20,000 nucleotides of DNA from an uncultured virus (IMG/VR IMGVR_UViG_3300044591_001667) (lineage: Duplodnaviria > Heunggongvirae > Uroviricota > Caudoviricetes). Under the pieces are notes generated by a model. That model was not told the origin of the DNA and did no database searches. It worked only from the letters and a program-made list of their open reading frames with translations. The DNA is taken from IMG/VR virus record IMGVR_UViG_3300044591_001667, one strand, 5' to 3'. Positions 840-16,865 of the stretch are shown here, piece by piece (the first letter of the stretch is position 1; the number at the start of each line of letters is the position of its first letter). The translations under genes and the position numbers were made by a program.

Positions 840-1916
840 ATGGAGAGTTGGCAAAAGCTACTGAGGTCTTCTACCCCTTTGACCTCAACAGTAGAGATGG
901 ACGGTCTTACGCGAGACTTAGTTCGTCCCTTCGATTACGAAACAGACGGTCTTTCAACCTTTCACCCGTTTGTTCTTCCAGAACTTCCTAGTGAGTTTAA
1001 CCTTGGCGTAATCGTTGGTGCCTCTGGGACAGGTAAGTCAACTCTCCTCCAATCTTTTGGAAATCCTGTAGTCCCAACTTGGGACCACAACAAATCAATT
1101 GCATCTCACTTTAATAATCCAGTAGATGCTAGCGAGCGCTTGTCTGCAGCAGGATTAATGTCTGTACCAGAGTGGGTAAAGCCTTATCAAGTTTTATCAA
1201 ATGGACAAAAGTTTCGTGCAGACTTAGCAATATCTTTACAAAGTAATGCTGTTATTGATGAGTACACCTCAGTAGTAGACCGTAATGTTGCAAAAGCTGC
1301 ATCAACTTCAATGTCTAAATATATTCGTCGTAACAACATAAAAGGAGTTGTGCTGGCAACTGTTCATCGCGACATCCTTGAGTTCCTCGAACCAGATTGG
1401 GTTATTGATACTGATCGTGGTGAGTGGACCTCGGGAAGGTATCTTCACCGACCTGAATTGGTTCTCGACATATATCCTGCCCACAACAGCATTTGGGAAT
1501 ACTTCGCTTCGCACCACTATCTCTCGAACAAGCTCAATAAAGCCTCACACAGCTACGTGGCTATCTGGGAACAACAGTTAGTCGGGTATGTGGCAGCAAT
1601 GACCTATCCGTCAGGTACCGTACAAAATGCATGGCGTGAGCATCGTTTAGTAGTTCATCCTGATTATCAAGGATTAGGTTTTGGACCCAAACTTTCGGAA
1701 GCTGTTGCTCAACATTACTTAAGCAATAATAAAAGATATTTTTCAAAGACTTCTCATCCTCGACTAGGAGAATATAGAGACACTTCTAAATTGTGGAAAC
1801 CAACATCAAAGAATCATATGAAGCGCTTAGATGGACTTGTACATCGTGAAAACATGCGTTGGGAGTTAAACCCAAATCGTTGGTCTTATTCACATGAATA
1901 TATTGGAAACAAATGA
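840..1916 (+). CDS. ABC-type ATPase fused to a C-terminal GNAT acetyltransferase-like domain
   Basis: Walker A GASGTGKST, signature LSNGQKFR, Walker B VIDEY and H-loop ATVH. The C-terminal part has HHYL and the acetyl-CoA-binding motif RLVVHPDYQGLGFG. No transmembrane segments. Confidence 0.85.
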   Translation: MESWQKLLRSSTPLTSTVEMDGLTRDLVRPFDYETDGLSTFHPFVLPELPSEFNLGVIVGASGTGKSTLLQSFGNPVVPTWDHNKSIASHFNNPVDASERLSAAGLMSVPEWVKPYQVLSNGQKFRADLAISLQSNAVIDEYTSVVDRNVAKAASTSMSKYIRRNNIKGVVLATVHRDILEFLEPDWVIDTDRGEWTSGRYLHRPELVLDIYPAHNSIWEYFASHHYLSNKLNKASHSYVAIWEQQLVGYVAAMTYPSGTVQNAWREHRLVVHPDYQGLGFGPKLSEAVAQHYLSNNKRYFSKTSHPRLGEYRDTSKLWKPTSKNHMKRLDGLVHRENMRWELNPNRWSYSHEYIGNK

Positions 1917-1945: not shown

Positions 1946-2245
1946 ATGAGTGATATCAACTCTCCTGATTCTCCTCAGGAAGAGCCAAAAAAAGACTCTG
2001 TTGATTTTAATCAACTAGAGGTCGAGCTAGGCATGTCGTCTTTGGACGAAGATGCAACTCAGATGCATGAACTTTTTAAGTCTTTAGTAAAAGCAGGATT
2101 TAGAGAAAAACAAGCTCTCCGTCTTGTTGCTCTTATCATCACAGAGCATGACGTTCTAGATGAAGCAATAGTTTTTCAATCAGAGATTGACTTTGATGAA
2201 ATTGGTGACCAAGACCCCGACATTGATTTTGATGATGAGGAATAG
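1946..2245 (+). CDS. acidic hypothetical protein
   Basis: ORF 1913..2245. The start was moved to ATG 1946 because TACACT (1934-1939) lies 6 nt upstream, matching the leaderless pattern. Confidence 0.65.
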   Translation: MSDINSPDSPQEEPKKDSVDFNQLEVELGMSSLDEDATQMHELFKSLVKAGFREKQALRLVALIITEHDVLDEAIVFQSEIDFDEIGDQDPDIDFDDEE

Positions 2246-2580
2246 TGGAAGAAAAGGACAAGTCCGACTACCTCTTTGAACTCCTGTTAGAAATGGGAGC
2301 GGTTGAGTTTCACGGAATAGAGCCATCTACAGGAGAACCTGTATACAAGATTACAGACGTCTGCGAAGAACTCTTCCCTGAGCTTTGGGATATGCAAAAG
2401 CAGCATGTTGGAGAAATGGCTAATTCTTTGTGGCAAAAAGGACTAGTTGAGATAAACCTTACCGCTTCAGGGGAAACAGTTTATTTTAGACAGCATAATT
2501 ATAATAAATATCTAGAACTGAAAGACTCTCTTTCACTAGACGAAAAAACCTTCATGCAAGTTTTTCTTGACGATATGTAA
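2245..2580 (+). CDS. hypothetical protein
   Basis: 111-aa ORF whose GTG start overlaps the upstream TAG. Confidence 0.7.
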   Translation: MEEKDKSDYLFELLLEMGAVEFHGIEPSTGEPVYKITDVCEELFPELWDMQKQHVGEMANSLWQKGLVEINLTASGETVYFRQHNYNKYLELKDSLSLDEKTFMQVFLDDM

Positions 2581-2615: not shown

Positions 2616-2855
2616 ATGATGGCTTACGCAAGATTTTTTGCAGACGATGTTTATATTTTTGCATCACCTAAAGGTCTCATGTGTCAGATGTGTAGTTTTG
2701 GTGACATGCTAGAGACAAGCTTTTTAGCTGAGTCAACTCAAGAAATGGTTGACCACCTCAAAGCTCATCAGAAAAAAGGAGACAGAATGCCTTCAACAAT
2801 TTTCGACGAGCTTTGGGCGGATGATGCTGCGAACTACCCAACTAAAAAGGTTTAA
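2616..2855 (+). CDS. small protein with possible C2H2 zinc site
   Basis: CQMC...HLKAH motif. GGGAG RBS and an upstream TAGAAT. Confidence 0.6.
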   Translation: MMAYARFFADDVYIFASPKGLMCQMCSFGDMLETSFLAESTQEMVDHLKAHQKKGDRMPSTIFDELWADDAANYPTKKV

Positions 2856-3252
2856 AGTCTTTTAATTTGTTAAATGCTTCTTCAATAGCTGGCGGAAGAT
2901 TTGTATTTTTTATCGTATTGTTTGCGTAATTCTCATCAAATCTTGGAGTAGTAATAGTTGTCGCTCCCCCATCATTTGAGTAAATACGAGGATTTCTTTT
3001 GTTTCTCCACAACTCTTCATCTATTTGAACCCACTCATTTTCGTGTTCTGTAAGTTGGCGTAGGTTTTCGAATCTCATCAGTTTTTCAATAGCTTCTGGT
3101 GTGAAGTACAAAGTATTTTTATCATGAGGAAAATCTGTAAACACATCAAGAACTTTTAGATAAAACTCAACAAGTTCAGGAGCTTCTAGTGCCAATTCAA
3201 GCTCAAGCTTGGCATGCTCCATCCATTTTTCTTTGCTATATTCAAATGCCAT
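2842..3252 (-). CDS. hypothetical protein
   Basis: 136-aa ORF whose start overlaps the end of the upstream minus-strand gene. Confidence 0.7.
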   Translation of the reverse strand: MAFEYSKEKWMEHAKLELELALEAPELVEFYLKVLDVFTDFPHDKNTLYFTPEAIEKLMRFENLRQLTEHENEWVQIDEELWRNKRNPRIYSNDGGATTITTPRFDENYANNTIKNTNLPPAIEEAFNKLKDFKPF

Positions 3253-3973: not shown

Positions 3974-4027
3974 ACCTCAACCATACCTTCCCTTTTCCCC
4001 TTTCATTTCTCGCAACGCCGATGCTTT

Positions 4028-4050
4028 TAAGGGAAAGAGAGCCCGGAAAA
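4028..4050 (+). repeat. dispersed polar motif, copy 1 (TAAGGGAAAGAGAGCCCGGAAAA)
   Basis: Core GAGCCCGGAAAA at 4039-4050, between divergent genes. Confidence 0.9.
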
Positions 4051-4075
4051 TACAATTTTCAACTATGATAAATAC

Positions 4076-4819
4076 ATGGCACGCAAAGACGAAATAGTCG
4101 TTTACTGGTCTCCATACTACCCTGTTCGACCAGAGGAGCGGTATGACTGGAACATGTTATACCAAGACCCTAAATCTCTAACAGATTCTTTGAAGCCTGA
4201 AAGATTAACTAATATCGATCCAAATAGCAGCATATTTTCCTGTCCTGCATATAAAAACATGTTCTCTAATACTTTTGTTTTTTCAAATCTTGTTGACAGT
4301 AAGTATGAATTTAATTTAGAGGCTAACCGATTTGTTGCTATGCAAGAACATCAGTATGTAATGTCTCGGTCTATGCAGCCTTTTTTGCAAGACAGGAAGG
4401 TAATTTGGATTCCCCTTGGGTGGACGTTCTTCTGTGAAGAAGATATTGAAATGGAGCTTATGCCCCCCATTTTGCACGACACTGTCCATAGGCATTACGG
4501 GAGCATTACTCCAGGAAGATTTAATATATCTAAGTGGTATAGACCTTGTATAACAGAGTTTATTCTTTGGAAAGGTCAAAATAGATTCCATCTTGCTGAA
4601 GAGCCAGTTTTGTACGCAAGGTTTATTACAGATAAGAAAGTAACTCTAAAAAGATTTGAAATGACAGCTGACCTACAAAAACTGGCTGAAAGCATAGCTG
4701 ACACAAAAAACAATCTTGGTAGATTTAAGTCTTTGGCTTATAGGTACGATACGTTTGTTAAATCTAAAACCAGAGACCTTGTTCTTCGTAAGGTAAAAGA
4801 GGCTGTCATAGATGAGTAA
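4076..4819 (+). CDS. hypothetical protein, tandem paralogue A
   Basis: Aligns end to end with the next gene (EIVVYW.P.Y, DWNM.Y.DP, CPA, NTFVFS, GRF.I..WYRP, TRD..L.K.KEAVI). Confidence 0.85.
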   Translation: MARKDEIVVYWSPYYPVRPEERYDWNMLYQDPKSLTDSLKPERLTNIDPNSSIFSCPAYKNMFSNTFVFSNLVDSKYEFNLEANRFVAMQEHQYVMSRSMQPFLQDRKVIWIPLGWTFFCEEDIEMELMPPILHDTVHRHYGSITPGRFNISKWYRPCITEFILWKGQNRFHLAEEPVLYARFITDKKVTLKRFEMTADLQKLAESIADTKNNLGRFKSLAYRYDTFVKSKTRDLVLRKVKEAVIDE

Positions 4820-5552
4820 AGAAGAGATTGTTGTTTATTGGGGGCCTTGTTACGATGTTGGTCCAGACAATGTTATTGACTGGAATATGTTCTATGCTGA
4901 CCCTACAGAGCTTCTTCCTGATTTAAAAAAGATGAAAGACAAAACAGCAGGAAATCAAAGCATACTTTACTGCCCTGCCTTCACTGAAAACTATAAAAAT
5001 ACTTTTGTATTCAGTAGCGTTGTAGATAGCAGGTTTTCATACAACCATCGAGAAAACCTCTGGGAAATACCTAACAAGTATCAAATACATCCTGCTACAA
5101 CCATGCGAACCAGTTACATGGAAAATCGCAAACCTTTAGTTCTTTCTATGATTTGGCTTTTTGTTTCTGAAGAGCCATTAGAGATGGAGATTATTTCTCC
5201 ATACCTTCATCAAACAGAGTCTTCCAAGTACGGGGTTATTGCCACTGGAAGGTTTGATATTGGACGTTGGTATAGACCTATCCATGCTGACTACCTGTTG
5301 TGGAGTGGTCTTGACAACTTTGCAATTAAAGAGGGGGATCCCTTTTTCTATGTAAGGTTTAATACTGATAAAAAAGTTGTTCTAAAGAGATACATCAATA
5401 CTCCTGAAATCTACAAACAGACTGTTTCTAATGTTGAAACTAAATTTCTTTTTGGTAAAACACCCCCTCTTGCAAAGCTATACAACTACTTTTCAAAAAC
5501 TAGAACCAGAGACATCATGCTTAAAAAGATAAAAGAAGCAGTGATTGAATAA
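4812..5552 (+). CDS. hypothetical protein, tandem paralogue B
   Basis: Paralogue of 4076..4819, with an 8-nt overlap. Confidence 0.85.
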   Translation: MSKEEIVVYWGPCYDVGPDNVIDWNMFYADPTELLPDLKKMKDKTAGNQSILYCPAFTENYKNTFVFSSVVDSRFSYNHRENLWEIPNKYQIHPATTMRTSYMENRKPLVLSMIWLFVSEEPLEMEIISPYLHQTESSKYGVIATGRFDIGRWYRPIHADYLLWSGLDNFAIKEGDPFFYVRFNTDKKVVLKRYINTPEIYKQTVSNVETKFLFGKTPPLAKLYNYFSKTRTRDIMLKKIKEAVIE

Positions 5553-6004
5553 TGGAGTCTTCAGCACTGATAGAGCTTGAGCGTATGTTCAAGCAGAACA
5601 AGGTTGGCTTCACTGCATCTTGCTTTGACATGCTACATGCAGGGCACATTCTTATGCTGGAAGAAGCAAAATCAGTTTGCGACCACTTGATAGTTGCTCT
5701 TCAGACAGACCCAAGTATTGATAGGCCAAATAAGCGTAAGCCGATTCAATCTTTGATTGAGCGTCAGATTCAGCTTAAAGCAGTTAAATATGTAGACGAA
5801 ATCGTCATTTACGAGACAGAAGAAGACCTGCTCAATTTACTTAAGACTCTACCTATAGACATCCGAATTATCGGGGAAGACTATGCAGGTAAGGACTTCA
5901 CAGGACGCGACTGGTGCGCAACTCACGGTATAGAGATTTACTACAATAGTAGGAAGCACGAGTATTCATCAACAGAGTTAATAGAGCGCATCCGAAAGGG
6001 TTGA
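5552..6004 (+). CDS. cytidylyltransferase-family protein (glycerol-3-phosphate cytidylyltransferase/TagD-like)
   Basis: HxGH motif in GFTASCFDMLHAGH, plus VKYVDEIV, IGEDY and C-terminal YSSTEL. Confidence 0.85.
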   Translation: MESSALIELERMFKQNKVGFTASCFDMLHAGHILMLEEAKSVCDHLIVALQTDPSIDRPNKRKPIQSLIERQIQLKAVKYVDEIVIYETEEDLLNLLKTLPIDIRIIGEDYAGKDFTGRDWCATHGIEIYYNSRKHEYSSTELIERIRKG

Positions 6005-6005
6005 C

Positions 6006-6221
6006 ATGAATTACAGAAGTATCGAAGCTGGTTCAATAGCTCAAGGGTGGGGGAGCTTTACTGCTCAGTCTTTAGATGACGCTGTAACTTTGTCTGTCAC
6101 CACTAAGTGCCCAGAGAAGTGGCTTCTAGTTGATAGAGAAACTGGTCAGGTTTATCAAGGTTCAAATGAAGTAAATCCATACATGCCTTCACAATTTCTT
6201 TGGAAACCTATAGACTCATAG
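6006..6221 (+). CDS. small hypothetical protein
   Basis: 71-aa ORF packed directly after the previous stop codon. Confidence 0.65.
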   Translation: MNYRSIEAGSIAQGWGSFTAQSLDDAVTLSVTTKCPEKWLLVDRETGQVYQGSNEVNPYMPSQFLWKPIDS

Positions 6222-6245
6222 TCTAAGTAAGTAAGGAAAGACGTA

Positions 6246-6707
6246 TTGAAAAAGTTAATAGCAGGTTCTCTTTTATTAGTTATGTCTATAGGAACTTTTG
6301 TCGTTCTTGGGCAGCCAAAAGCAGATTGCGTAAATCTTTATATTGATTATGGCCCGCTAAACAACGGGGCAGTCATAGAGCAGTGCATTCCAGTTACAGG
6401 TGATGTTATGGCATTGGACCTTCTAGCCAGTGTTAACCTATCGACAGAGGGGACTCAGAAGTATGGCAACGCAGTGCTTTGTCGTCTTAATGGGTTCCCT
6501 AACGCATCAGTGGAGTCTTGCGAGGATATGCCACCAGCAGAGTCCTACTGGGCAGTTTTAATAAAAGAGAATGAAATCATTCCTTGGCCTTTTGATTTGC
6601 AAGGCGAATGGGGGTGGGCTCAAACAGGTATAGATGAAGTGCATCTACATCCAGGTGAATCTCTTGGACTTGTATTTGCAGATAATGGAGAGGTGCCATT
6701 CCCATGA
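6246..6707 (+). CDS. secreted/membrane-anchored protein, putative DUF4430/transcobalamin C-terminal-like domain
   Basis: TTG start with AAGGAAAG RBS and a signal peptide (MKKLIAGSLLLVMSIGTFVVLG). The pattern LCRLNGFP..C..MPPAESYWA...WGWAQTG.....L.PGESLGLVF resembles the xxxING...W...G....L.xGD pattern of B12-binding beta-grasp domains. Confidence 0.5.
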   Translation: MKKLIAGSLLLVMSIGTFVVLGQPKADCVNLYIDYGPLNNGAVIEQCIPVTGDVMALDLLASVNLSTEGTQKYGNAVLCRLNGFPNASVESCEDMPPAESYWAVLIKENEIIPWPFDLQGEWGWAQTGIDEVHLHPGESLGLVFADNGEVPFP

Positions 6708-6850
6708 TTCTCCTCGAAGAGAAGATTGAAGTAGCAACAAAAGTTAATCCTTGGCTCAATGCTGTCGTAAGCATTGGATTCAATTTAGCTGCACTCTATG
6801 TATCACATCTGATAACTCTTGAAATTTGGCGCTCACTAACAGGACATTAA
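6704..6850 (+). CDS. 48-aa single-TM protein (not in ORF track)
   Basis: MILLEEKIEVATKVNPWLNAVVSIGFNLAALYVSHLITLEIWRSLTGH. ATGA overlap upstream, TAATG overlap downstream, and a GGAGAGG RBS. Confidence 0.75.
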   Translation: MILLEEKIEVATKVNPWLNAVVSIGFNLAALYVSHLITLEIWRSLTGH

Positions 6851-7458
6851 TGGTCAACTTAACTCGTATTTACACAAAGACTGGCGATGACGGAACTACA
6901 TCTTTAGGTGACCTCAGCAGAGTCCCTAAGACAGATTCTCGTATTGAGGCTTACGCAACGGTAGATGAAGCAAACTCATTTATTGGTGTTGCTATGTCTT
7001 CTATGGTTAGTACTAGGCTAATCTCAGTAATGCGCAACATTCAAAATCATTTGTTTGATGTTGGAGCAGATTTATCAACTCCTGTAGTCCAAGATCCAAA
7101 AATCACACCGCTTCGCATTACAGAAGAGCAAATCGAGTATTTAGAGAAGTGGATAGACAGTCTTAACTCTAAACTTGAACCACTTCGTTCATTTGTTCTT
7201 CCCTCTGGCACAAAGGCATCAGCTGACCTTCATGTTGCTAGGACTGTAGTTCGTAGAGCTGAACGAGCAGTTTGGCGAGCATTGGAAGACCGTTGGGGCG
7301 GTGTTAACCCTTTAACTGCTAAGTATTTGAATAGATTGTCTGATTTGTTGTTTGTGATAGCAAGATACGAAAACAGAACTTCTGGTGACATATTGTGGGA
7401 ACCAGGTGCTAAAGTAAAAGATACTGAAGCAACACACCTCAGCGACGATACAGTGTAA
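6850..7458 (+). CDS. pduO: ATP:cob(I)alamin adenosyltransferase, PduO type
   Basis: MVNLTRIYTKTGDDGTTSL, RIEAYATVDEANS, QNHLFDVGADL, FVLPSG, LHVARTVVRRAER and YLNRLSDLLF. The start at ATG 6850 is coupled to the upstream stop. Confidence 0.95.
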   Translation: MVNLTRIYTKTGDDGTTSLGDLSRVPKTDSRIEAYATVDEANSFIGVAMSSMVSTRLISVMRNIQNHLFDVGADLSTPVVQDPKITPLRITEEQIEYLEKWIDSLNSKLEPLRSFVLPSGTKASADLHVARTVVRRAERAVWRALEDRWGGVNPLTAKYLNRLSDLLFVIARYENRTSGDILWEPGAKVKDTEATHLSDDTV

Positions 7459-7467
7459 GGAATTTAG

Positions 7468-7584
7468 ATGGCTGCAAAAACATCAAGAGTTAGAAACGAT
7501 AGTCGCAAGTGCGGGAAAGCTTCTAAAAAGCGTCCAAAGCAATTTGATGCTCAGCGTAGAAGATTAGTTACAGTAACGCCCTGA
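7468..7584 (+). CDS. 38-aa highly basic peptide (not in ORF track)
   Basis: MAAKTSRVRNDSRKCGKASKKRPKQFDAQRRRLVTVTP with an AAGGA RBS. The last codons overlap the tRNA 5' end. Confidence 0.5.
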   Translation: MAAKTSRVRNDSRKCGKASKKRPKQFDAQRRRLVTVTP

Positions 7585-7649
7585 TAGCTCAGTGGTAGAG
7601 CATTCGCCTTGTAAGCGAAGGGTCGTCAGTTCAATCCTGACTCGGGGCT
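7578..7649 (+). tRNA. tRNA-Thr(UGU)
   Basis: Acceptor stem GCCCTGA/TCGGGGC, D-arm GCTC-AGTGGTA-GAGC, anticodon arm TTCGC-CT TGT AA-GCGAA, T-arm GTCAG-TTCAATC-CTGAC. CCA is not encoded. Confidence 0.95.
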
Positions 7650-7720
7650 CGATTTTTTGTGTAGTAATATAAAAAGAGCAGTAGAAGTACTTCTGCTAAT
7701 TGCATCACATAGGAGCCACA

Positions 7721-8110
7721 ATGTTGGCTAAAACAAATTCAGGCAGTGACAAACAAGTAATACAACCAAAACAATGGACATTAGTTTATTTTGGCGAAAA
7801 GAAACAAACATCTTTTATATCTCACGGCTCAGGTAAACTTCTTTTTAATGTCATCCTTCGTGTTGAATACCCCGAGATAGGATGTCCAAGAACTCTTCGA
7901 GGACGATTTGTCAGATGGCCTAATACATCAAAAGCAGATGAGACAGGTCATAACGATGTTAATCCAATTGCTGGACTAACAAGACATCACCACTGGGACC
8001 ACTTCTTAGAGAACAGAGCTAAAATGCCAGTAGGTTTTATAGTCTGGCATGACGGAGAAAGCCCAATAGTTCTTGATGGAAGACAGATTAAAAGTTTTTT
8101 AAGTAACTAG
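7721..8110 (+). CDS. hypothetical protein
   Basis: AGGAG RBS before ATG 7721, in frame with track ORF 7700..8110. Confidence 0.7.
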   Translation: MLAKTNSGSDKQVIQPKQWTLVYFGEKKQTSFISHGSGKLLFNVILRVEYPEIGCPRTLRGRFVRWPNTSKADETGHNDVNPIAGLTRHHHWDHFLENRAKMPVGFIVWHDGESPIVLDGRQIKSFLSN

Positions 8111-8832
8111 TTATATTCTTTTCTAGTCCAAAACTTATCTTTGTATGCATTGTAAAAGCTCATTTTTAGCTTTCTTATGCTTCTTTGAACAGTTATCATG
8201 TCTGATTGTTCTCCATACTTCATCTCATAAGATTCTCTTTTAAATGGAATCACCTGAGCCATCGGGTATCCTGCTGGGATAATCCCTTCCCAGTCTGGGT
8301 CAATCAAAAATGGAAAGTTGATTGGGTGAGCATAAGTATCAGTGTCAACAATAGCTGGTATGCATTGAAGTATTTGGTCTTTTCCATCCCTATTCATTGG
8401 AGGAAGAAATAGACATGAGTAACCTTTTGGAGTTATTACTGTCCAAGGTGAGTGGAATTTTGGAATTGCATTATCAGGATGCTTTTGTACATGGGGATGA
8501 GTAGACATTTGTATTGGTGGATGAAAACCTAGAACATCGTAGTCAGGCCATTGAAAAAGCTGCTGACCATTCTTTTTTGTTACCTTTACATCTGTTGTTA
8601 AAGGGATTATGTAACCTGCTGTCATAGCATCCAGCATCGGCATACACTTTTTTCCTGTAGCAGTGCCAGTGTTCAATCCAATGTCACTCCAGTAGACAGT
8701 CCCCTGCTCTCCATCTATATATGAAGGCAGTTTTTTATACCAATCTGGAATAGCTTTTTTGGCGGGATAGGGCCGAGTCTCCTCTGGAAGGTCTCCCATA
8801 AGGTCCACAAAAGTAATTGGTATTGAATTCAT
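8107..8832 (-). CDS. conserved phage hypothetical protein (DUF6065-like / dUTPase-like beta fold suspected)
   Basis: IPDWYK, KKCMPMLDAMTAGYIIP, PWTVITPKGYSCLF, IVDTD and IPAGYPMAQVIPFKRE. Confidence 0.65.
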   Translation of the reverse strand: MNSIPITFVDLMGDLPEETRPYPAKKAIPDWYKKLPSYIDGEQGTVYWSDIGLNTGTATGKKCMPMLDAMTAGYIIPLTTDVKVTKKNGQQLFQWPDYDVLGFHPPIQMSTHPHVQKHPDNAIPKFHSPWTVITPKGYSCLFLPPMNRDGKDQILQCIPAIVDTDTYAHPINFPFLIDPDWEGIIPAGYPMAQVIPFKRESYEMKYGEQSDMITVQRSIRKLKMSFYNAYKDKFWTRKEYN

Positions 8833-8927
8833 ATATCTAAAACTACACCTTTTTTCTCAGAAGACAACATACAACCTACCTATAATTATGAAAATATATA
8901 AGTTTCCTTACCCGACAAGCAAGGAAA

Positions 8928-8973
8928 AAGGCGGCTGGACCACTAAAAAACGGTCCAGTCGCCTTCTTTTATT
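8928..8973 (+). terminator. intrinsic terminator-like hairpin
   Basis: AAGGCGGCTGGACC-10 nt-GGTCCAGTCGCCTT followed by CTTTTATT. A-rich 5' flank, so possibly bidirectional. Confidence 0.7.
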
Positions 8974-9012
8974 TCAGCGATAATAGACCTTGGACAATGC
9001 ATTGGAGGAAAA

Positions 9013-9234
9013 ATGAGAAAACTAGGGCTTCTAAGCTTGGTAGCGATGAGTCTTCTTCTCACTGGTTGTGGAAACGGGTCATACCGTTACCCATGTCAGG
9101 ACCCAGCTAACTGGGAAACAGCAGACTGCAAACCGCCAGTTTGCACAGTCAATGGGACATGCCCAGAAGACTTAGTTGGTGAGGATGTAGTAAATGGAAC
9201 TACATCAGATGGAGGAACAGTAACAAATGACTAG
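9013..9234 (+). CDS. small Cys-rich lipoprotein
   Basis: GGAGG RBS, signal peptide with lipobox LTGC, and four further Cys residues. Confidence 0.8.
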   Translation: MRKLGLLSLVAMSLLLTGCGNGSYRYPCQDPANWETADCKPPVCTVNGTCPEDLVGEDVVNGTTSDGGTVTND

Positions 9235-9625
9235 AACTAGATATTCATCAGCGGACTTGGATGCTCGCCTAAAGTTTATTCTTGGAATCATCCTTGGGTT
9301 AATTCTGCTTTTTACAGCAGTAGGTATTCTTTACGCTCTTATTTTTGTTACCCAACCTGTAAACGCTCAGTCAGAGAATGACAAGATGTTCTTTAACGTC
9401 TTGGGAAGCATTGCAACATTCATTACTGGAACTCTTGCAGGTATTTTGATTGGTAGCAAGGGTGGAGATTCTGCAGCACCAATTGATTTTGGTACTCCCG
9501 AAGCTCCAGCTGCAGCAGCGTCTTCAACTGAACCAACTCCTACAGAAGATGCTCCAGCTACAGGTAAGCCAGAAGGTCAGATGCCTGATGAGCAGGACAT
9601 CGATGAGGAATGGGATAAGGACTAA
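9227..9625 (+). CDS. two-TM membrane protein with acidic tail (holin candidate)
   Basis: Two hydrophobic segments (FILGIILGLILLFTAVGILYALIFV and VLGSIATFITGTLAGILIG), directly upstream of the CHAP gene. Confidence 0.6.
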   Translation: MTRTRYSSADLDARLKFILGIILGLILLFTAVGILYALIFVTQPVNAQSENDKMFFNVLGSIATFITGTLAGILIGSKGGDSAAPIDFGTPEAPAAAASSTEPTPTEDAPATGKPEGQMPDEQDIDEEWDKD

Positions 9626-9627
9626 CA

Positions 9628-10203
9628 ATGGCCGAATTGGGGACAGCAGCCAAACTTATTGAGGTTGCAACAGCAGAACTAGGAACTATTGAAGGTCCTA
9701 AGGACAATGAAACAAAGTATGGTGCCTACACAAAGGCTAACTTCCAACCTTGGTGCGGAAGTTTCGTCAACTGGTGTGGAAACGAAGCCGGGGTAAAAAT
9801 CCCTAATACTGTTTACACTCCAGGTGGAGCAGCAGCATTCAAGAAAGCTGGACGTTGGTACGACGCACAGATTTGTGATCCAGAGCCAGGGGATATCGCC
9901 TATTTTGATTTCCCGGCAGATGGTGTTGATCGCATCAGTCACGTAGGAATTGTTATTAAAGATAACAATGACGGAACTGTCTGGTGTATCGAAGGAAACA
10001 CTAGCCCAGATAAAAAGGGAAGCCAAAGAAATGGCGGACAGGTTTCCAAGAAACTCCGTGCGTATAAGAAGAACAAAGCAGGAGAGCAAATCTCAATCGT
10101 GGGATTTGGTCGTCCTAAGTTTAATGGCGCAAGTTCTTCACCAGCATCTTCTGCTTCAAAACCAGCAGCAAAAGCAGAAAAGTGCCCGACCTGCGGTAAG
10201 TAA
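9628..10203 (+). CDS. CHAP-domain peptidoglycan hydrolase (endolysin candidate)
   Basis: Catalytic motifs PWCGSFVNW, PGDIAYFD, SHVGIV and IEGNT. C-terminal CPTCG. No signal peptide. Confidence 0.85.
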   Translation: MAELGTAAKLIEVATAELGTIEGPKDNETKYGAYTKANFQPWCGSFVNWCGNEAGVKIPNTVYTPGGAAAFKKAGRWYDAQICDPEPGDIAYFDFPADGVDRISHVGIVIKDNNDGTVWCIEGNTSPDKKGSQRNGGQVSKKLRAYKKNKAGEQISIVGFGRPKFNGASSSPASSASKPAAKAEKCPTCGK

Positions 10204-10298
10204 TGTATTACCTAACTCACGTCACCTTCCAAGGAGTGTTTATCGTAACTTTAGTTGCGGTAGCACTCTTTGGTTGTTGGTGGGTAGATAGAAACTAA
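10203..10298 (+). CDS. 31-aa single-TM peptide (not in ORF track)
   Basis: MYYLTHVTFQGVFIVTLVAVALFGCWWVDRN. TAATG overlap with the CHAP stop; it fills the gap to the next gene. Confidence 0.6.
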   Translation: MYYLTHVTFQGVFIVTLVAVALFGCWWVDRN

Positions 10299-10311
10299 AA
10301 ACGGAGAACGT

Positions 10312-10722
10312 ATGTACGAGTATCGCGTAAAAAAGGTTATCAAGGTTGTTGACGGTGACACCATTGATGTTGACATTGATTTAGGGTTTAACGTGTCTTT
10401 CTATCAACGAGTCCGTCTTGCTGGCATAGACACTCCTGAATCTCGTACTACCAATAAACATGAAAAAGAACTTGGTTTAGAAGTTAAAAAGAAACTTGCA
10501 GCTTTGCTTGCTAGTGCTGGAGATATTGTCATTAAAACAGAGAAGCCAGACAGCACAGAAAAGTATGGTCGTATTCTTGGGTGGCTATATCTTGATGGTG
10601 CAGAGGTCTCTGTCAATGAAGCTTTAATTGCTGGTGGATACGCTTGGTCTTATATGGGTGAAACCAAAGTTAAGGACTTTGATGCTTTGTTGGCAAAACG
10701 TAAACTAAAGAAGGACATCTAA
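10312..10722 (+). CDS. thermonuclease (SNase-like) family nuclease
   Basis: VVDGDTIDV, RVRLAGIDTPE, KYGRILG and VNEALIAGGYA. Confidence 0.9.
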   Translation: MYEYRVKKVIKVVDGDTIDVDIDLGFNVSFYQRVRLAGIDTPESRTTNKHEKELGLEVKKKLAALLASAGDIVIKTEKPDSTEKYGRILGWLYLDGAEVSVNEALIAGGYAWSYMGETKVKDFDALLAKRKLKKDI

Positions 10723-10910
10723 TGGAAGCAATACTTGTATATCTTGGCCTTGCCCTTGCTATCTCTTTTATTACTATTTCAGATGATAGAAAAGCAAAGA
10801 AGATTAAAGAAGGGTATAACCCAAACGCAATAGACCGCGACGGCGACGGGGTTGTCCAAGAAGGAACTAAGTTCGAACGTAAAGCTAAGAAGTCAAAGAA
10901 AAAAGCTTAG
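10722..10910 (+). CDS. small membrane-anchored protein with DxDGDG loop
   Basis: N-terminal TM segment, DRDGDGVVQE (Ca-binding-like loop) and a basic tail. TAATG coupling. Confidence 0.65.
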   Translation: MEAILVYLGLALAISFITISDDRKAKKIKEGYNPNAIDRDGDGVVQEGTKFERKAKKSKKKA

Positions 10911-11215
10911 TCATGTTTTAGGTTGCTTGGCACTTTAGCCAACTTACCTACAAACCCTTCTGGTGCATTTTCGAATCCGACCTTCTCGTCCAAGTAGCCT
11001 TTAATGGCTCTTGGCACAATAAAAGTTAGAATCTCTCTTGCTTCACAGACATTGCATCCACAAAATGGCAAGCCACTTTCTGTTTCTACATCAGCTTCAG
11101 GGGTATCACTTTCAGCGTCCACAGAGTCATACAGACTCATCATGTACTCTTCCAACCCATTTTGTAGGTCGGTAGCCCAACCCTCATCCCTAATCACAAA
11201 CTCTTTTATCTCCAT
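10907..11215 (-). CDS. hypothetical protein with CGCxxC motif
   Basis: FCGCNVCE motif. TATGAT-N6-ATG upstream on the minus strand. Confidence 0.7.
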   Translation of the reverse strand: MEIKEFVIRDEGWATDLQNGLEEYMMSLYDSVDAESDTPEADVETESGLPFCGCNVCEAREILTFIVPRAIKGYLDEKVGFENAPEGFVGKLAKVPSNLKHD

Positions 11216-11242
11216 CCCCCCATCATACGCTGCTTCGGCGTA

Positions 11243-11265
11243 AAAGGGAACGGGAGCCCGGAAAA
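11243..11265 (+). repeat. dispersed polar motif, copy 2 (AAAGGGAACGGGAGCCCGGAAAA)
   Basis: Core at 11254-11265, between two minus-strand genes. Confidence 0.9.
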
Positions 11266-11302
11266 AGCAAAACCCGCCCTCAAAACGAGGACGGGTCTTT
11301 GC
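11262..11302 (-). terminator. intrinsic terminator of the NlpC/P60 operon
   Basis: Minus strand reads ACCCGTCCTC-GTTTT-GAGGGCGGGT followed by TTTGCTTTTT, just after the stop at 11309. Confidence 0.8.
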
Positions 11303-11308
11303 TTACCG

Positions 11309-11551
11309 CTACTTTTTCTTTTTGAAGGAGCCCTTTAGTTTCAAGATGGCAGATTTCTCTGAATACTTGACCCACTCGTATACAAAGATGCATGCAGCGA
11401 TTAGGAAGCCTAAAGACTCTGCTTGAACTATGTAATAAGTGGTTGGGTTGACAAGGTACGTCTCCCACGGGAAGGTATATGCAACTACAGGGAATGCAAT
11501 TACATTACCGAACACAACTGAAGTCACAATGCTCTTGTATACGTTTGTCAT
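11309..11551 (-). CDS. small two-TM membrane protein
   Basis: Start assigned to MTNVYK (AAGGA RBS). Two hydrophobic segments and a basic tail. Confidence 0.65.
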   Translation of the reverse strand: MTNVYKSIVTSVVFGNVIAFPVVAYTFPWETYLVNPTTYYIVQAESLGFLIAACIFVYEWVKYSEKSAILKLKGSFKKKK

Positions 11552-11570
11552 TTTGTCCTTTCTAGTGTTT

Positions 11571-12332
11571 CTAGTTGTTAGTTTCAACAATTCGAGTATA
11601 GGTAATTACAACATCTCCGTTGCCCTTACCCCATTTGCTGATTGATGTAATTTCAGTCTTGTCGCCTCTTTTACCGCCAGAGTGGAGCATCTCATCTGGT
11701 CCAGTATAAATAGCGGTGTGGAAGGCCCCATTTGAGCCTCTATGAGTAAATGCAACTATGTCTCCGATTTTAGGATCATCGACAAAGGTTCCTGCCTCTT
11801 TTTGAACTGAAGCACTGTGATAGAGAGATATATCGAGATGTGCGTACATCCAAAGCACCAGACCAGAACAGTCCCAAGCGTCGGGGGTAGAGCCACCTAA
11901 GGCATACCAAGTTTTACCGACGTACTGTTTAGTTAGGGCAAGTGCCTTATTAAGGTTCTCTGTGTCTCTTGCTATCTTCTCTAGGCGAGCAATCTCTGCT
12001 TCTAGTTCTGCTTGCTTGCGCTCAGCTTCTGACTCAAGTTTGTCTTGCCTTGCCTTTTCTTGAGCCATCCAGTCTATGGAACCAATCTCAGGAGTTTCTA
12101 CCCTGACAATTGGACCAGTCACCACGGAGGATGTCTTTACTGGGCCCGAAAGAACGTTTGTTACTTGAACAGGATTTACAATCTTGGGAGCTGGCAGTGT
12201 TACTAGTTGTTCTGTTGTTACTTCTTGAATCGGCTCTGGCACTACTTCTGCAAGAGCAAAAGCTGCGCTAGTACCTGTAGTTATTACTAGTGCCGTCAAG
12301 GCACCTACTGTAATAAATCTTTTCCTTTTCAT
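11571..12332 (-). CDS. secreted NlpC/P60 (C40) peptidoglycan endopeptidase
   Basis: Signal peptide, coiled coil, then YALGGSTPDAWDCSGLV, IGDIVAF, HTAIYTG and MLHSG. Confidence 0.9.
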   Translation of the reverse strand: MKRKRFITVGALTALVITTGTSAAFALAEVVPEPIQEVTTEQLVTLPAPKIVNPVQVTNVLSGPVKTSSVVTGPIVRVETPEIGSIDWMAQEKARQDKLESEAERKQAELEAEIARLEKIARDTENLNKALALTKQYVGKTWYALGGSTPDAWDCSGLVLWMYAHLDISLYHSASVQKEAGTFVDDPKIGDIVAFTHRGSNGAFHTAIYTGPDEMLHSGGKRGDKTEITSISKWGKGNGDVVITYTRIVETNN

Positions 12333-12450
12333 TTGGCGACCTACCTTTCCTTGGTAGTTAGTACTCGGTCGTTGAGTGTTGAGGCGTCCTATTCAGTTAT
12401 GAACCTCCAGCTTAGTGTGATTCGAGTCACAGCTCAACTAGAGGTTATTT
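12333..12450 (-). ncRNA. candidate structured cis-regulatory 5' leader
   Basis: -10 TATGAT at 12462-12457. Stems 12446-12436/12412-12402 and 12431-12427/12420-12416. RBS-sequestering hairpin at 12371-12337. Confidence 0.55.
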
Positions 12451-12587
12451 CAATCTATCATATAGTTTTCTTTAAATTAGCCTTATCTTCGATTTATTGA
12501 AAGCCCCCAACTCCTACATCCCAGTAACCACCTACCATCCACCCCCTTTCCCCCCTTTTTTCTTTTTGCCCCGTTTTCTGCCGTTTT

Positions 12588-12610
12588 TAACGGAATGGGA
12601 GCCCGGAAAA
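12588..12610 (+). repeat. dispersed polar motif, copy 3 (TAACGGAATGGGAGCCCGGAAAA)
   Basis: Core at 12599-12610, 14 nt before TAGCCT-N6-ATG. Confidence 0.9.
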
Positions 12611-12636
12611 TCCAGTTTTTATGCTAGCCTGACTCC

Positions 12637-12774
12637 ATGCTTGATTTCCTAAAAAGACTGTTTTGTAAACATCCCATCACCACCCAATCCTCCTGCCCCT
12701 TTACTGGTAAGGACTACGACATTTGTATCGCATGCGGAAAGGTCTCTGAACGGGGTGGGAGCCCGGAAAATTGA
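12637..12774 (+). CDS. 45-aa Cys/His-rich putative zinc-binding protein (not in ORF track)
   Basis: MLDFLKRLFCKHPITTQSSCPFTGKDYDICIACGKVSERGGSPEN. Leaderless-type promoter. The stop overlaps the next gene's TTG start. Confidence 0.7.
   Translation: MLDFLKRLFCKHPITTQSSCPFTGKDYDICIACGKVSERGGSPEN
12748..12770 (+). repeat. dispersed polar motif, copy 4 (GAACGGGGTGGGAGCCCGGAAAA)
   Basis: Core at 12759-12770, abutting the TTG start at 12771. Confidence 0.9.
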
Positions 12775-13559
12775 TTTCTGAGCCGTATAAGGATATTTCG
12801 CAAGAAGTTGTTGATGTCTTAGAAGTTCTTATTGCTCCCGAAGATTCATATCATCAAAACCATAAGCGGCGTATGGCTCGCACTCTTGACCTACTTCTAC
12901 AAGAAAAACCAAAGGGTAAGCTCTTAGAGCTTGGAACTTCGAAAGTTATTCCGTTGTCGCTTCAGCAGCTAGCTCCAGATCTTGAAGTCCATGTAACTGA
13001 CTTTCAAAAGCATCTGCCCACAATTGACACTTCAACTATCTCAATTAAAGATAGAACGCTAGAAGCTCCAACCTACAGAATTGATTTAGAAACAGAAACC
13101 ATCCCCGTTGAGGATGAGAGCTTTGATGTAGTAATTTGCTGTGAAGTCATTGAGCACATGGAATTAGACCCAATGTTCATGCTGGCTGAGGTCAACAGAG
13201 TCCTCAAACCACAAGGAACTCTTATTCTCACCACACCCAACATCACCAGTTCAAGGGCTCTGTATAAGATGCTCAGGGGCATGGAGCCATACTTCTACAT
13301 GCAGTATCGCCACAAACCAGCTTTATATCGCCACAACTACGAGTACAGCGAGTACTCAATACGTCAGGTAACTAAAGCAGCGGGGTTCTCAGGGAGCGTA
13401 TGGACCGAGGATTCTTTTGAAGATGGAGTGATGGAGGACATCACCCGCCTACGAGCTATTGGCTACCCACTTACCTCCATTGGAGACAACATTTTTGCTG
13501 TCCTCACCAAAACTCGGGGGGTTGTAAATCGCTTCCCTTCGGTTATCTACGCAGACTAA
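12771..13559 (+). CDS. class I SAM-dependent methyltransferase
   Basis: LLELGT, IPVEDESFDVVICCEVIEHM, RVLKPQGTLILTTPN and HNYEYS. Confidence 0.88.
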   Translation: MISEPYKDISQEVVDVLEVLIAPEDSYHQNHKRRMARTLDLLLQEKPKGKLLELGTSKVIPLSLQQLAPDLEVHVTDFQKHLPTIDTSTISIKDRTLEAPTYRIDLETETIPVEDESFDVVICCEVIEHMELDPMFMLAEVNRVLKPQGTLILTTPNITSSRALYKMLRGMEPYFYMQYRHKPALYRHNYEYSEYSIRQVTKAAGFSGSVWTEDSFEDGVMEDITRLRAIGYPLTSIGDNIFAVLTKTRGVVNRFPSVIYAD

Positions 13560-13582
13560 TAACGGAATGAGAGCCCGGAAAA
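13560..13582 (+). repeat. dispersed polar motif, copy 5 (TAACGGAATGAGAGCCCGGAAAA)
   Basis: Exactly fills the 23-nt gap between the stop at 13559 and ATG 13583. Confidence 0.9.
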
Positions 13583-13849
13583 ATGAAGGTTAAGAAGATG
13601 AAACAGCCTCCAATAGGCTCTATTCTCGTAGACAAGGGTGGTAGTGCTTGGCAGCGCACGCCAAATGGTTGGTCCATGGCAGGAAGCGATGGATCTTGGC
13701 ACTACACATGGAAAGAGTTACTAGAAGAGTTACATCAGGAATTAAGACACCCAACCATTGAATGGGAGCCAGTTCTTGGGGATGCAAGGCTGCCTATGAT
13801 TGTGTATGTTCCTCATGAAGAGCTTTTTATTGAAGAAGAGGACGACTGA
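13583..13849 (+). CDS. hypothetical protein
   Basis: 88-aa Trp-rich ORF, coupled to the next ORF by TGATG. Confidence 0.7.
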   Translation: MKVKKMKQPPIGSILVDKGGSAWQRTPNGWSMAGSDGSWHYTWKELLEELHQELRHPTIEWEPVLGDARLPMIVYVPHEELFIEEEDD

Positions 13850-14095: not shown

Positions 14096-14632
14096 ATGAC
14101 TACACATAACAGACCACAGTTTGGCTCTCTAAGCGAGAATCCTTTTGGAATCGTCGGAGTTTTCCAAGAGCGACCAAACAAGTACATGATGCTCCTCTCC
14201 CTTGCACAAGAAATCCTGCGTGAGGACTCCCACCTCTCTTCAACCGAGCGAGAAGTGATTGCTGCCTATACCAGCAAGCTAAATGGTTGCCAGTATTGCT
14301 GCGGCTCCCACACGGCCTTTGCCCAATCCCTTGGTGCAACTGAAGATGACATCTATGCCATCGAAAGCGGAGATGTCGAAGGACATCCTTTGTCTGCCAT
14401 CTTGAAGTATGTAAAGAAGCTGACTCTTGCTCCTAGCACTATTTCAAACGAAGACAAGGAACTAGTTCACGAGGCTGGCTTCTCAGAGGAGCAGTTGAAG
14501 GACGCGATTGCCGTTTGTGCCGCTTTCAACCTATACAACAGGATTGTTGAGGGTCATGGAATTGCCCCTCACGATAACTACGACAAAGACGTAGAAATGA
14601 TCAATACTCATGGCTACGACCGTAGGTATTAG
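14096..14632 (+). CDS. AhpD/carboxymuconolactone decarboxylase-family (peroxidase-related) protein
   Basis: LSSTEREVIAAYTSKLNGCQYCCGSH, YVKKLTLAP, AGFSEEQL and AFNLYNRIVEG. Confidence 0.88.
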   Translation: MTTHNRPQFGSLSENPFGIVGVFQERPNKYMMLLSLAQEILREDSHLSSTEREVIAAYTSKLNGCQYCCGSHTAFAQSLGATEDDIYAIESGDVEGHPLSAILKYVKKLTLAPSTISNEDKELVHEAGFSEEQLKDAIAVCAAFNLYNRIVEGHGIAPHDNYDKDVEMINTHGYDRRY

Positions 14633-15375: not shown

Positions 15376-16095
15376 TTGATTCCAGAATTGAAGTTTAGTT
15401 CTGATGTTGTTGTAGAACTTGTAAAGCACAGCGCATCGGATGACGATGTAGCTTTTGCTGCCCGAGTATCTACTTTGGGTGAGAGAGCTCAGTCCCAGAT
15501 TGGGGCCGAGGACTCGAAGCTTGGCGGTCTTATTAACTTTTTAATGCGAGACCGCCATGGCTCACCATTTGAGCACTCTGTCTTTACTTTTTATGTAAAG
15601 GCTCCTATTTTTGTATGGCGCGAGCATATGCGTCATCGCATCGCTTCATACAATGAAGAGTCTGGTCGTTATCGAGTTTTAGACCCTGAGTTCTATATCC
15701 CTAATAAAGATAGAAAACTGCTTCAGATTGGTAAACCAGGAGCATATGTTTTTGAAGACGGTACTGATGAACAGCATGCAATTGTCTACAGTAACTATCG
15801 CCGGGTCTGTAAACAGTCTTATATGGAGTATGAAGAGATGGTAAGGCTTGGTATTGCTCGAGAAGTTGCTCGAGGGGTTTTACCTCTAACTATTTACTCT
15901 TCGGCTTATGTCACCATCAACTCACGAAGCCTTATGAACTTTCTATCTCTTCGACGTAACGTTGAGGGGCAGAGTTTTCCCTCATACCCACAACGCGAGA
16001 TTGAGATGGTGGCAGAGAAGTATGAAGAGTTTTTCAAAGAACTTATGCCTCTAACTCACAAAGCTTTTGTTGAGAATGGAAGAGTTGCTCCGTGA
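15376..16095 (+). CDS. thyX: FAD-dependent thymidylate synthase
   Basis: HGSPFEH, signature RHRIASYNEESGRY, AREVARGVLP, NSRSLMNFLSLR and QREI. Confidence 0.96.
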   Translation: MIPELKFSSDVVVELVKHSASDDDVAFAARVSTLGERAQSQIGAEDSKLGGLINFLMRDRHGSPFEHSVFTFYVKAPIFVWREHMRHRIASYNEESGRYRVLDPEFYIPNKDRKLLQIGKPGAYVFEDGTDEQHAIVYSNYRRVCKQSYMEYEEMVRLGIAREVARGVLPLTIYSSAYVTINSRSLMNFLSLRRNVEGQSFPSYPQREIEMVAEKYEEFFKELMPLTHKAFVENGRVAP

Positions 16096-16775
16096 CTAAT
16101 GGGATTGCATATTGTTATGCACGTGTATCAACCCAGATGCAAGCAGAAGAAGGCGTCTCACTTGACGGGCAAGAACGTCAACTGATTGCAGCAGCAGAAG
16201 CAGCTGGGTATGAAGCCGTGATTCTTCGTGAAGAAGGTAAGTCTGGTAAAAGTATTACTGGCAGACCTGTTTTGCGGAAAGCTTTAGATGAATTAGATGC
16301 TGGAAAAGCGCAAGCACTTTTTGTAACTCGCTTAGACAGACTTGCTCGTTCGACTCGTGACTTTCTTAGCATTGTTGACCGTTCACATAAATACGAATGG
16401 CGTTTAGCACTTCTTGATTTGGGATTGGACACTGGAACTTATCAAGGACGTTTTGTTGTAACCATCATGTCAGCAATGGCAGAGATGGAGCGCGGAATGA
16501 TTTCTATGCGTCAAAAAGATGTACATAAGGACCGTAGAGACGCTGGCAAAGTGTGGGGAGTCACTATTGGTCCTAAGTCTCCTCTTTCAACGGAAGTTAA
16601 AGAAAAGATATACAGTCAACGTTTAGCTGGACTTTCATACGGAAAAATTGCTGAAAGTTTAGAAAATGACAACATAGTTCCCCCTCGTGGTGGAAGCGGT
16701 TGGTATGCAGCAAATGTAAGACACATTTTTTTGACTTATTCAAAAGAGAAAAGCATTTTAGATAAATCCTCGTAA
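16092..16775 (+). CDS. serine recombinase (resolvase family) with a short C-terminal DNA-binding/recombinase-like domain
   Basis: YARVST (catalytic Ser), SGKSITGRP, VTRLDRLARS and AEMER. C-terminal GLSYGKIAESL...PPRGGSGW. Confidence 0.9.
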   Translation: MTNGIAYCYARVSTQMQAEEGVSLDGQERQLIAAAEAAGYEAVILREEGKSGKSITGRPVLRKALDELDAGKAQALFVTRLDRLARSTRDFLSIVDRSHKYEWRLALLDLGLDTGTYQGRFVVTIMSAMAEMERGMISMRQKDVHKDRRDAGKVWGVTIGPKSPLSTEVKEKIYSQRLAGLSYGKIAESLENDNIVPPRGGSGWYAANVRHIFLTYSKEKSILDKSS

Positions 16776-16816
16776 GGTAAAATTATCTTGTAGTTTGAAT
16801 GGACAACAGACTACAA

Positions 16817-16840
16817 ACAGGCGGTTTGCTAGCCGCTTGT
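16817..16840 (+). promoter_or_regulatory. hairpin in the 5' leader of the giant surface protein gene
   Basis: ACAGGCGGTT-TGCT-AGCCGCTTGT, lying between a TAAAAT -10 (16778-16783) and the GGAGG RBS (16854-16858). Confidence 0.4.
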
Positions 16841-16865
16841 ATTGCCGTGCGTTGGAGGCAGTGCT

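Follow-up and report, generated by a model that had tools for sequence, protein, structure and literature searches.

A conserved strand-biased site array in a freshwater actinophage family, with a possible role as an operator or roadblock

Introduction

Short repeated DNA sites lying in one orientation have been described in several groups of phages. The stoperators of Cluster A phages (L5 gp71, TipsytheTRex repressor, PMC9283540; Rhodococcus Cluster CA, PMC5721134) are asymmetric, multi-copy, mostly intergenic and strongly one-stranded; they are read by a monomer with two DNA-binding domains, and binding blocks elongation in one orientation (PMC9283540). The start-associated sequences (SAS) of Cluster K phages and their extended form (ESAS) are purine-rich asymmetric motifs ending in GAGCCC, found in one orientation in the non-structural region (PMC3203893, PMC12699233, PMC11373665). 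Promoter early stem-loops (PeSLs) of T4-like phages are repeated elements of a hyperplastic region, where flanked modules collapse to a chimeric element (PMC2839356, PMC4122927), and the programmed nick sites of T5, phiKMV and tf are one-strand consensus sites of unexplained purpose (PMC3517423). In this study we analyze a stretch of 20,000 nucleotides (the window) from an uncultured virus of the class Caudoviricetes (IMG/VR record IMGVR_UViG_3300044591_001667), which carries five copies of an asymmetric 23-bp motif, nAASGGRRnGRGAGCCCGGAAAA, with a 12-bp core. The motif belongs to a conserved and strand-biased site system of the relatives of this virus, and we tentatively read it as an operator or roadblock array for a phage DNA-binding protein.

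The site lacks some defining features of SAS, stoperators and PeSLs and yet resembles each of them in part. Like stoperators it is asymmetric, multi-copy, mostly intergenic and strongly one-stranded, some copies lie over promoters, and two-helix-turn-helix (two-HTH) proteins of similar size are encoded here; however, stoperators are 13 bp long with more than 20 sites genome-wide, whereas here the sites are 23–32 bp long with 3–9 copies in one block, and no homolog of the stoperator repressor (HTH plus Stoperator domain) was detected among these candidates. The 13-bp SAS consensus is approached within two mismatches by two of the five window copies (copies 3 and 4, read by eye), but the family consensus diverges from it. 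Virtually all SAS stand 3–7 bp before a start codon, carry an AGGAG Shine-Dalgarno core and number 11–19 per genome, whereas a same-strand start directly follows only 12 of 116 sites here (those with genes called on both sides by a simple in-house gene caller), none of the five window copies has the AGGAG core, and 14 records hold 3–9 copies each; a SAS-like start association is therefore not the rule. The site is also longer than SAS, with a conserved right arm and antisense copies within coding sequence. In ESAS, 17-bp inverted repeats lie upstream of about half of the SAS, whereas here no partner-specific upstream pairing was found, the ESAS repeat itself not having been searched directly. 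PeSLs possess a sigma-70 promoter with -35 and -10 elements and a terminator stem-loop, whereas copies 1 and 3 of the window lack a -35 element (TTG occurs at offset 0 in 22 of 129 non-redundant sites), there is no excess folding over permuted sequences, most insertions and deletions lie off any copy, and the PeSL-like early promoter repeat of the family is a separate motif. A trait shared with the nick sites and T4 pac (PMC3012670) is that related terminases are found together with T5-like long terminal repeats; the present site is longer and clustered, with 69 of 72 copies on one strand. In integron-like and serine attachment-site cassette systems every mobile gene carries the site, whereas here 29 of 40 indels touch none; such systems further have a fixed crossover point in a two-armed site, and here the crossovers fall within positions 10–23/24, with no dyad around them.

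What is new in this locus is the family-wide breadth of the site, its fixed chromosomal position, a synonymous constraint on an in-gene copy, a delimited crossover window, a negative indel test and a sister motif. The comparison bears on the unexplained SAS repeats, as a similar-looking motif is here not mainly a start signal.

Motif Copies in the Window

An earlier note on this DNA had reported five plus-strand copies sharing an exact core, and this observation is real. The 12-bp core is exact in all five plus-strand 23-mers, with cores starting at 4039, 11254, 12599, 12759 and 13571, and the five window matches at no more than one mismatch compare with a shuffle mean of 0.10, none of 200 dinucleotide shuffles reaching five. 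The copies and the elements next to them are as follows.

3985..4027, plus strand: C/T-rich tract 5' of copy 1, a family-wide feature
4028..4050, plus strand: copy 1, occupying the -35 position of a leaderless-type promoter; at the same place in G001–G004 and G007
4064..4069, plus strand: -10-like hexamer, starting 13 nt past copy 1 and 6 nt ahead of the ATG at 4076
6004..6006, plus strand: empty junction; G002, G003, G007 and metagenome loci L379/L383 have a copy here between the identical gene pair
11243..11265, plus strand: copy 2, left edge of the variable module array
12520..12587, plus strand: long pyrimidine tract 5' of copy 3
12588..12610, plus strand: copy 3, occupying the -35 position of a leaderless-type promoter
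12625..12630, plus strand: extended -10-like hexamer (with TG), 14 nt past copy 3 and 6 nt ahead of the ATG at 12637
12748..12770, plus strand: copy 4, directly 5' of the methyltransferase TTG start (12771)
13560..13582, plus strand: copy 5, filling the entire intergenic gap directly 5' of an ATG

A -10 hexamer placed 6 nt ahead of an ATG matches the layout of leaderless promoters in Actinobacteria. From the ends of copies 1 and 3 the distance to such hexamers (positions 4064 and 12625) is 13 and 14 nt, as had been claimed; in the window promoter scan no -35 consensus accompanied either hexamer, and the one at 4064–4069 was for this reason not called. The bracketing of the methyltransferase gene by copies 4 and 5 was likewise found as described, each copy adjoining a start codon and copy 5 being the whole gap, and so was a serine recombinase gene (16092–16775) that starts 2.5 kb past copy 5. 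Other statements of the earlier note hold in part. Copy 4 is not intergenic but lies inside the 3' end of a 45-codon open reading frame (ORF, 12637–12774), and pyrimidine-rich tracts precede copies 1 and 3, while copy 2 follows a short pyrimidine run only.

Distribution in the Phage Family

The window belongs to a family of freshwater actinophages of ~130 kb, judging from its gene content, a ThyX protein nearest to those of Streptomyces and Gordonia phages, its occurrence in lake-water metagenomes and relatives at 78–88% nucleotide identity. Statements on whole genomes rest on the records of these relatives (G numbers), and L numbers denote loci. The relatives carry two WhiB genes and portal, capsid and tape-measure genes; among 130 ORFs of at least 70 aa in G003 (ORFs spanning tile borders being missed) no phage RNA polymerase or sigma factor was recognized. 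Among named records the closest is DSL-LC01, assembled from a metagenome (TerL 74%), for which a family 'Nanparkviridae' has been proposed (PMC10611076). The family is common in lake metagenomes and so far uncultured, and parts of the window were present in 20 of 24 listed metagenome runs.

A strict pattern of the motif retrieved 24 loci from 13 viral contigs. With the recombinase gene product as bait we collected 75 loci (redundant, and with the training sites included), in which a matrix at a threshold of at least 12 bits gave 197 matches on the recombinase strand versus 2 on the opposite one, reversed controls giving 1 and 0; L181, a locus with 10 kb upstream, had no match. Reduction left 129 non-redundant sites, and the motif is conserved in at least 28 distinct genomes. 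When 15 records were scanned whole or mostly whole (minimum 80 of 93 kb), 14 contained 3–9 copies and DSL-LC01 none. Six copies were counted in a 136-kb record. Within the 14 motif-bearing records 69 of 72 matches lay on the same strand, with a control of 2 in 3.37 Mb; opposite-strand exceptions occur in G013 (two copies), G019 and DSL-LC01. Nearly all copies are confined to a variable array of 3–12 kb between a ribonucleotide-reductase gene and the recombinase; past the recombinase come a large repetitive gene, a two-HTH gene and terL. The system is therefore not genome-wide, as the earlier note had supposed, but a local array with rare lone copies. The same note had expected an undescribed, conserved and strand-biased site system in relatives, and this is what the scans found, the strand bias being as anticipated and the many copies across the genome being replaced by a few clustered ones.

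No strand switch at the array was seen in GC-skew, which tracks gene direction. In cultured phages a single chance-level match of 21 bp was found, and the stretches scanned in A3Wally (75 kb) and GodonK (50 kb) contain no array. An origin of the site from the host was rejected, with 7 single matches in GTDB genomes, none of them titled as Actinobacteria. We found no published description of the motif in the literature covered, outside which lie subscription papers and the SAS-alignment figures and supplements of PMC3203893 and PMC12699233, which may matter for the comparison with SAS.

In the early region, promoter and ribosome-binding-site (RBS) repeats distinct from this motif are found. They form a PeSL-like array of 15–16 copies at 22.6–43.4 kb of DSL-LC01 (L113) and lie at 92–114 kb in G003, and the early RBS word of DSL-LC01 is common to G002 and G003. 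Arrays of glycine-rich (PF21722) genes, with a motif copy and a near-consensus promoter ahead of each gene, were seen at L165:4480-9381 and 15717-18896 and in L191, and two of these cassettes are inverted, after terL. In the 160.7-kb record of G002 a set of structural genes (~25 kb) is present twice, in diverged versions (L025, L032), and the record is perhaps a two-strain chimera. Relatives of the small serine recombinase are encoded in at least 595 stretches of viral contigs, beside a primase in the loci examined.

Anatomy and Placement of the Site

Across the 129 sites strong conservation is observed at positions 3–7, 10, 12–18 and 20–23, and a T-run is conserved at positions 30–32. The core is as first described, and the full element is longer than the 23 bp initially assigned to it, reaching ~32 bp with a right arm of the form A4-N5-T3. 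Columns of the right arm show little covariation and a dyad around the core is absent. The copies vary in a genome-specific manner, with 3.15 mismatches within versus 5.34 between genomes (28 genomes). The 40 nt upstream have a C fraction of 0.39–0.40 (gaps of at least 40 nt, for either direction of the upstream gene) versus 0.19 in 151 motif-free gaps. An RNA hairpin between tract and motif was considered and rejected, as the tract has no specific pairing to its own motif and folding energies of true and permuted sequences are −10.8 vs. −10.7 and −12.2 vs. −12.1 kcal/mol.

The sites are mostly intergenic with neighbours in either orientation, and for 45 of 116 the next plus-strand gene is more than 60 nt away. 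An ATG directly follows 19 of the 129 sites. Where a start lies 8–45 nt downstream, a leaderless -10 element is present in 12 of 19 cases.

Lone Copies Inside Coding Sequence

Lone same-strand copies are found ~40–45 kb from the array, near the portal gene, in G002 (two), G003, G005, G011 and G018, whereas five other genomes have none near portal. These copies sit antisense within coding sequence, and the two lineages concerned have them in different genes. One gene was compared in three diverged versions; the degenerate codons that the motif covers agree in 5 of 5 cases versus 11 of 37 in the rest of that gene (hypergeometric p about 0.005, calculated by hand, for a site picked by the motif), and the retained codons include the rare CCG (6%) and TCC (7%). 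An antisense in-gene copy under synonymous constraint implies that the site acts at the DNA level rather than as a signal to ribosomes, and this constraint is the best evidence for such a function.

Gene-Content Changes at the Copies

The genes of the window that take part in these changes, together with those discussed below as neighbours or candidate binders, are listed here.

2245..2580, plus strand: acidic protein with weak winged-helix matches, second clade-restricted candidate binder
2616..2855, plus strand: C2H2-type zinc protein, candidate binder; no fold match
11266..12610: motif-bounded module ending in copy 3, with terminator hairpin, 80-aa ORF and NlpC/P60 gene
11269..11299: hairpin terminator, within the module
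11309..11551, minus strand: 80-aa ORF, within the module
11571..12332, minus strand: NlpC/P60 gene, within the module
12637..12774, plus strand: 45-aa Cys/His-rich ORF with copy 4 in its 3' end; weak PHROG matches including a zinc-finger family (E 1e-3)
12771..13559, plus strand: class I S-adenosylmethionine methyltransferase, 262 aa, between copies 4 and 5; G003 has a ~45-codon ORF instead
13583..13849, plus strand: 88-aa ORF directly after copy 5, its far end motif-free; not here in G001, G002 and G004
16092..16775, plus strand: small serine recombinase (Resolvase and partial Recombinase domain), flanking the array on the right in the two motif-bearing clades

The module 11266–12610 is not at this place in G001, G002, G005 and G007, where a single chimeric copy is left, and its NlpC/P60 gene and 80-aa ORF stand elsewhere, motif-free, in G001, G003, G004 and G005. 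At the module site of the window G004 has a 3.8-kb tail-fibre-like module and a metagenome contig has two other modules; at least seven different motif-bounded modules occur between the same anchors in the subclade of the window. In two pairs of close relatives, L126/L129 (99% identical) and G004/G001 (95%), the single site joins the left flank of one copy to the right flank of the other, and the crossover is confined to positions 10–23 and 10–24, respectively. Crossovers occur at the copies, to the left of the middle of the A4-N5-T3 arm, and an exchange centred on that arm was rejected.

The broader record of gene gain and loss is different. Among 40 indels between close relatives (events partly redundant, and the window's own module missed) a copy stands at both ends in 2, at one end in 9 and at neither in 29, and 13 of 80 indel ends fall at a copy versus 83 of 443 junctions that carry one. 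Comparison of six close relatives showed changes at 4 of 5 motif junctions and at 16 of 25 others, after removal of a paralog artefact at copy 1. The proposal that gene-content differences map to the motif is thus true of the exactly collapsed modules and untrue of most indels, and a general gene-cassette insertion system is not supported, in view of those 29 indels, of the copy gained or lost at 6004/6006 while its neighbouring genes stay the same, and of recombinases without an array (G025/G027). Run X1 yielded a minor contig with the module-less junction at depth 2.3 versus about 25, and in X17 the module-less contig was the major one; these contigs represent other strains and are not proof of excision. 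No excision circle joint, which would correspond to the mini-circles of PeSLs, was seen among the contig matches listed, which are assembled contigs only. Contig depth in X1 was flat across the window at coarse resolution (24.9–25.6).

Sister Motif and a Clade without the Array

In 80 more distant recombinase loci the motif had no match on the plus strand and 1 on the minus (control 1). A sister motif was found instead in many of these loci, with 50 sites, 46 of them on the recombinase strand (control 0), likewise between reductase and recombinase genes; of the 4 other sites, a single contig accounts for 3, and the last is the DSL-LC01 copy on its recombinase strand. The sister motif is built of a pyrimidine-leaning flank, a GC core, an A-run, a short spacer and TT. 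The two profiles are not significantly similar (114 of 2000 column shuffles), and their homology therefore rests on position and build. In the sister clade terL is distant from the array, and DSL-LC01 has sister copies in both orientations. Coding sequence around sister arrays amounts to 43 kb antisense versus 25 kb sense, with 16 of 47 sites called in antisense ORFs, whereas around arrays of the window clade it is 94 kb sense versus 43 kb antisense. A second repeat of the sister clade was rejected, being ribonucleotide-reductase coding sequence. In DSL-LC01 at ~47.2–47.3 kb (L113), a pre-portal two-HTH gene has an in-frame Ser-rich insertion composed of a pyrimidine tract and a sister-motif copy.

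A third group has the recombinase and no array: G025 and G027 (whole), G028 (in part) and G026 (by pattern). De novo repeat searches of G025, G027 and G028 segments returned coding repeats only, the positive control being recovered.

Candidate Binding Proteins

Three related two-HTH proteins occur family-wide, encoded before terL, before portal and as a longer paralog. The zinc protein (2616–2855) is present in 10 of 11 motif-clade records and its gene adjoins a copy in 16 of 21 loci, and the winged-helix-like acidic protein (2245–2580) is present in 11 of 11; neither is in the other records examined, and clade restriction cannot single out one candidate binder. None of the candidates matched a known structure. 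Fold searches of the zinc protein and the pre-terL HTH protein gave no clear match, and the two-HTH candidates did not match the Stoperator-domain repressor. Covariation of the motif with recombinase, HTH protein or ThyX was not detected beyond phylogeny; for terL the partial rho was 0.36 (20 genomes, no significance attached).

Operator Array, Landmark, or Recombination Site

The reading that we favour, tentatively and with less than even confidence, is that of an operator or roadblock array resembling stoperators, with PeSL-like recombination as a by-product. The motif would be the core of a ~32-bp asymmetric site bound by a putative phage-encoded protein, for which the best candidates are the tandem HTH proteins encoded before terL and portal, or the clade-specific zinc protein. 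The 3–9 redundant sites would punctuate the accessory and lysis block that separates the ribonucleotide-reductase gene from the recombinase-terminase genes, and the bound protein could gate promoters through the covered -35 region and block read-through as a roadblock, possibly aided by the C-rich (rut-like) tract in front. Occasional recombination between copies would be expected because they are direct repeats with 14–15 bp identity, now and then deleting or swapping the intervening genes and homogenizing copies within a genome. The one-strand bias may then reflect the mode of copy spread and not a polar function, which fits the two inverted copies of G013, both of which lead inverted promoter-gene cassettes. 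We count the family-wide strand bias, intergenic placement, codon constraint, the variants shared within genomes, leaderless -10 elements, C-rich tract and two-HTH proteins in favour of the operator array. Several observations weigh against it. Stoperators are oriented along transcription and these sites are not, 24 of 116 facing the 3' end of a minus-strand gene, the lone copies lying antisense in genes, and the sister arrays standing mostly under antisense coding; the spacing to the -10 element varies (13–15 or 22–23 nt); individual copies are gained or lost without a change in the neighbouring genes (6004/6006); no candidate protein matches a known repressor by profile or fold; and motif distance is uncorrelated with the pre-terL HTH protein (partial rho 0.09).

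The main rival, which is possible though we consider it doubtful, is a chromosome-polar landmark, of which site and protein would have diverged into two versions in two clades. It would be read in a step that proceeds in one direction along the chromosome, namely terminase initiation in packaging, terminal-repeat formation, staged ejection, programmed single-strand nicking or a fork block; its reader is perhaps the two-HTH protein whose gene directly precedes terL, and gene exchange would be seeded at these marks as well. It would explain why the array points to the recombinase and primase in both clades despite opposite predominant local transcription, and it suits copies that are redundant, untied to particular genes, at times within coding sequence, and provided with an A-tract/T-tract right arm. 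There are precedents, as T4 pac synapsis promotes gene amplification (PMC3012670) and the nick sites of T5, tf and phiKMV all lie on one strand (PMC3517423), and if true the landmark would touch the old question of the purpose of one-strand programmed sites in phages with long terminal repeats. Yet inverted copies exist (two in G013, some in DSL-LC01), terL lies far from the array in the sister clade, G025/G027 lack an array, A3Wally with a related TerL (64%) and a 15,503-bp terminal repeat has no motif in the 75 kb examined, the contig depth in X1 is flat though coarse, and the homology of the two motifs lacks statistical support. It is unlikely that the site is the crossover site of the neighbouring small serine recombinase in a cassette system, cut near positions 16–17 of the 32-bp element. 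The exact collapse of two copies into one, the delimited crossover windows, the seven or more modules between the same anchors, and the same-strand position of the recombinase next to the array in each of the two clades all suit this idea, as do positions 16–17 in that they are uniform in 8 of 15 genomes and that the sole inverted copies have a self-complementary centre; but these positions are mixed in the other 7, the core has no dyad symmetry, one-sided insertions leave the site intact, most indels touch no copy, indel ends are not concentrated at copies, other junctions changed along with motif junctions, motif distance is uncorrelated with the recombinase (partial rho −0.04), and the third clade has the recombinase without the array. 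A near-neutral or self-propagating repeat, whose copies multiply through unequal recombination in a plastic region and persist solely as safe places for gene swaps, would account for concerted variation within genomes, single-copy gain and loss, and an orientation inherited from duplication; we hold it to be very improbable in view of the sharply invariant positions, the synonymous constraint on a lone copy 45 kb away, and indels that are not enriched at copies. The lowest probability falls to a SAS-like translation-initiation element acting as a phage-specific ribosome-binding signal. Copies 3 and 4 approach the SAS 13-mer, copies 4 and 5 end it 6 nt before the start, inside the SAS range of 3–7 nt, and an ATG follows some sites directly, but the rarity of same-strand starts, the antisense copies in genes, the missing AGGAG core, the drift of the family consensus and the presence of a different, strong RBS repeat in the early region all speak against it. 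The conserved position, the in-gene constraint and the two sequence versions offer a concrete and testable handle on a phage protein-DNA system.

Accessory Genes of the Region

In the Rfam search of the window the tRNA alone matched. Matches to manA RNA below the gathering score were seen in motif-bounded modules of relatives, at L373:3306-3484 (E 7.5e-07) and L074:158-337 (1.5e-11), with no counterpart in the window. A match to Tad3, a Thoeris anti-defence family (PF25185, E 6.5e-19), lies at 2842–3252 on the minus strand and is kept in relatives, and an ABC-ATPase/GNAT fusion (phrog_11143; 840–1916, plus strand) is possibly a DNA-modification enzyme. Tandem paralogs (phrog_17480) and a DUF6065-like gene at 4076–5552 and 8107–8832 differ in copy number among relatives. 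Further accessory genes are a cobalamin adenosyltransferase (6850–7458), a CMD/AhpD-like gene (14096–14632) and tRNA-Thr (7578–7650), and a Na+/H+ antiporter is found in this accessory region of G001 and G004.

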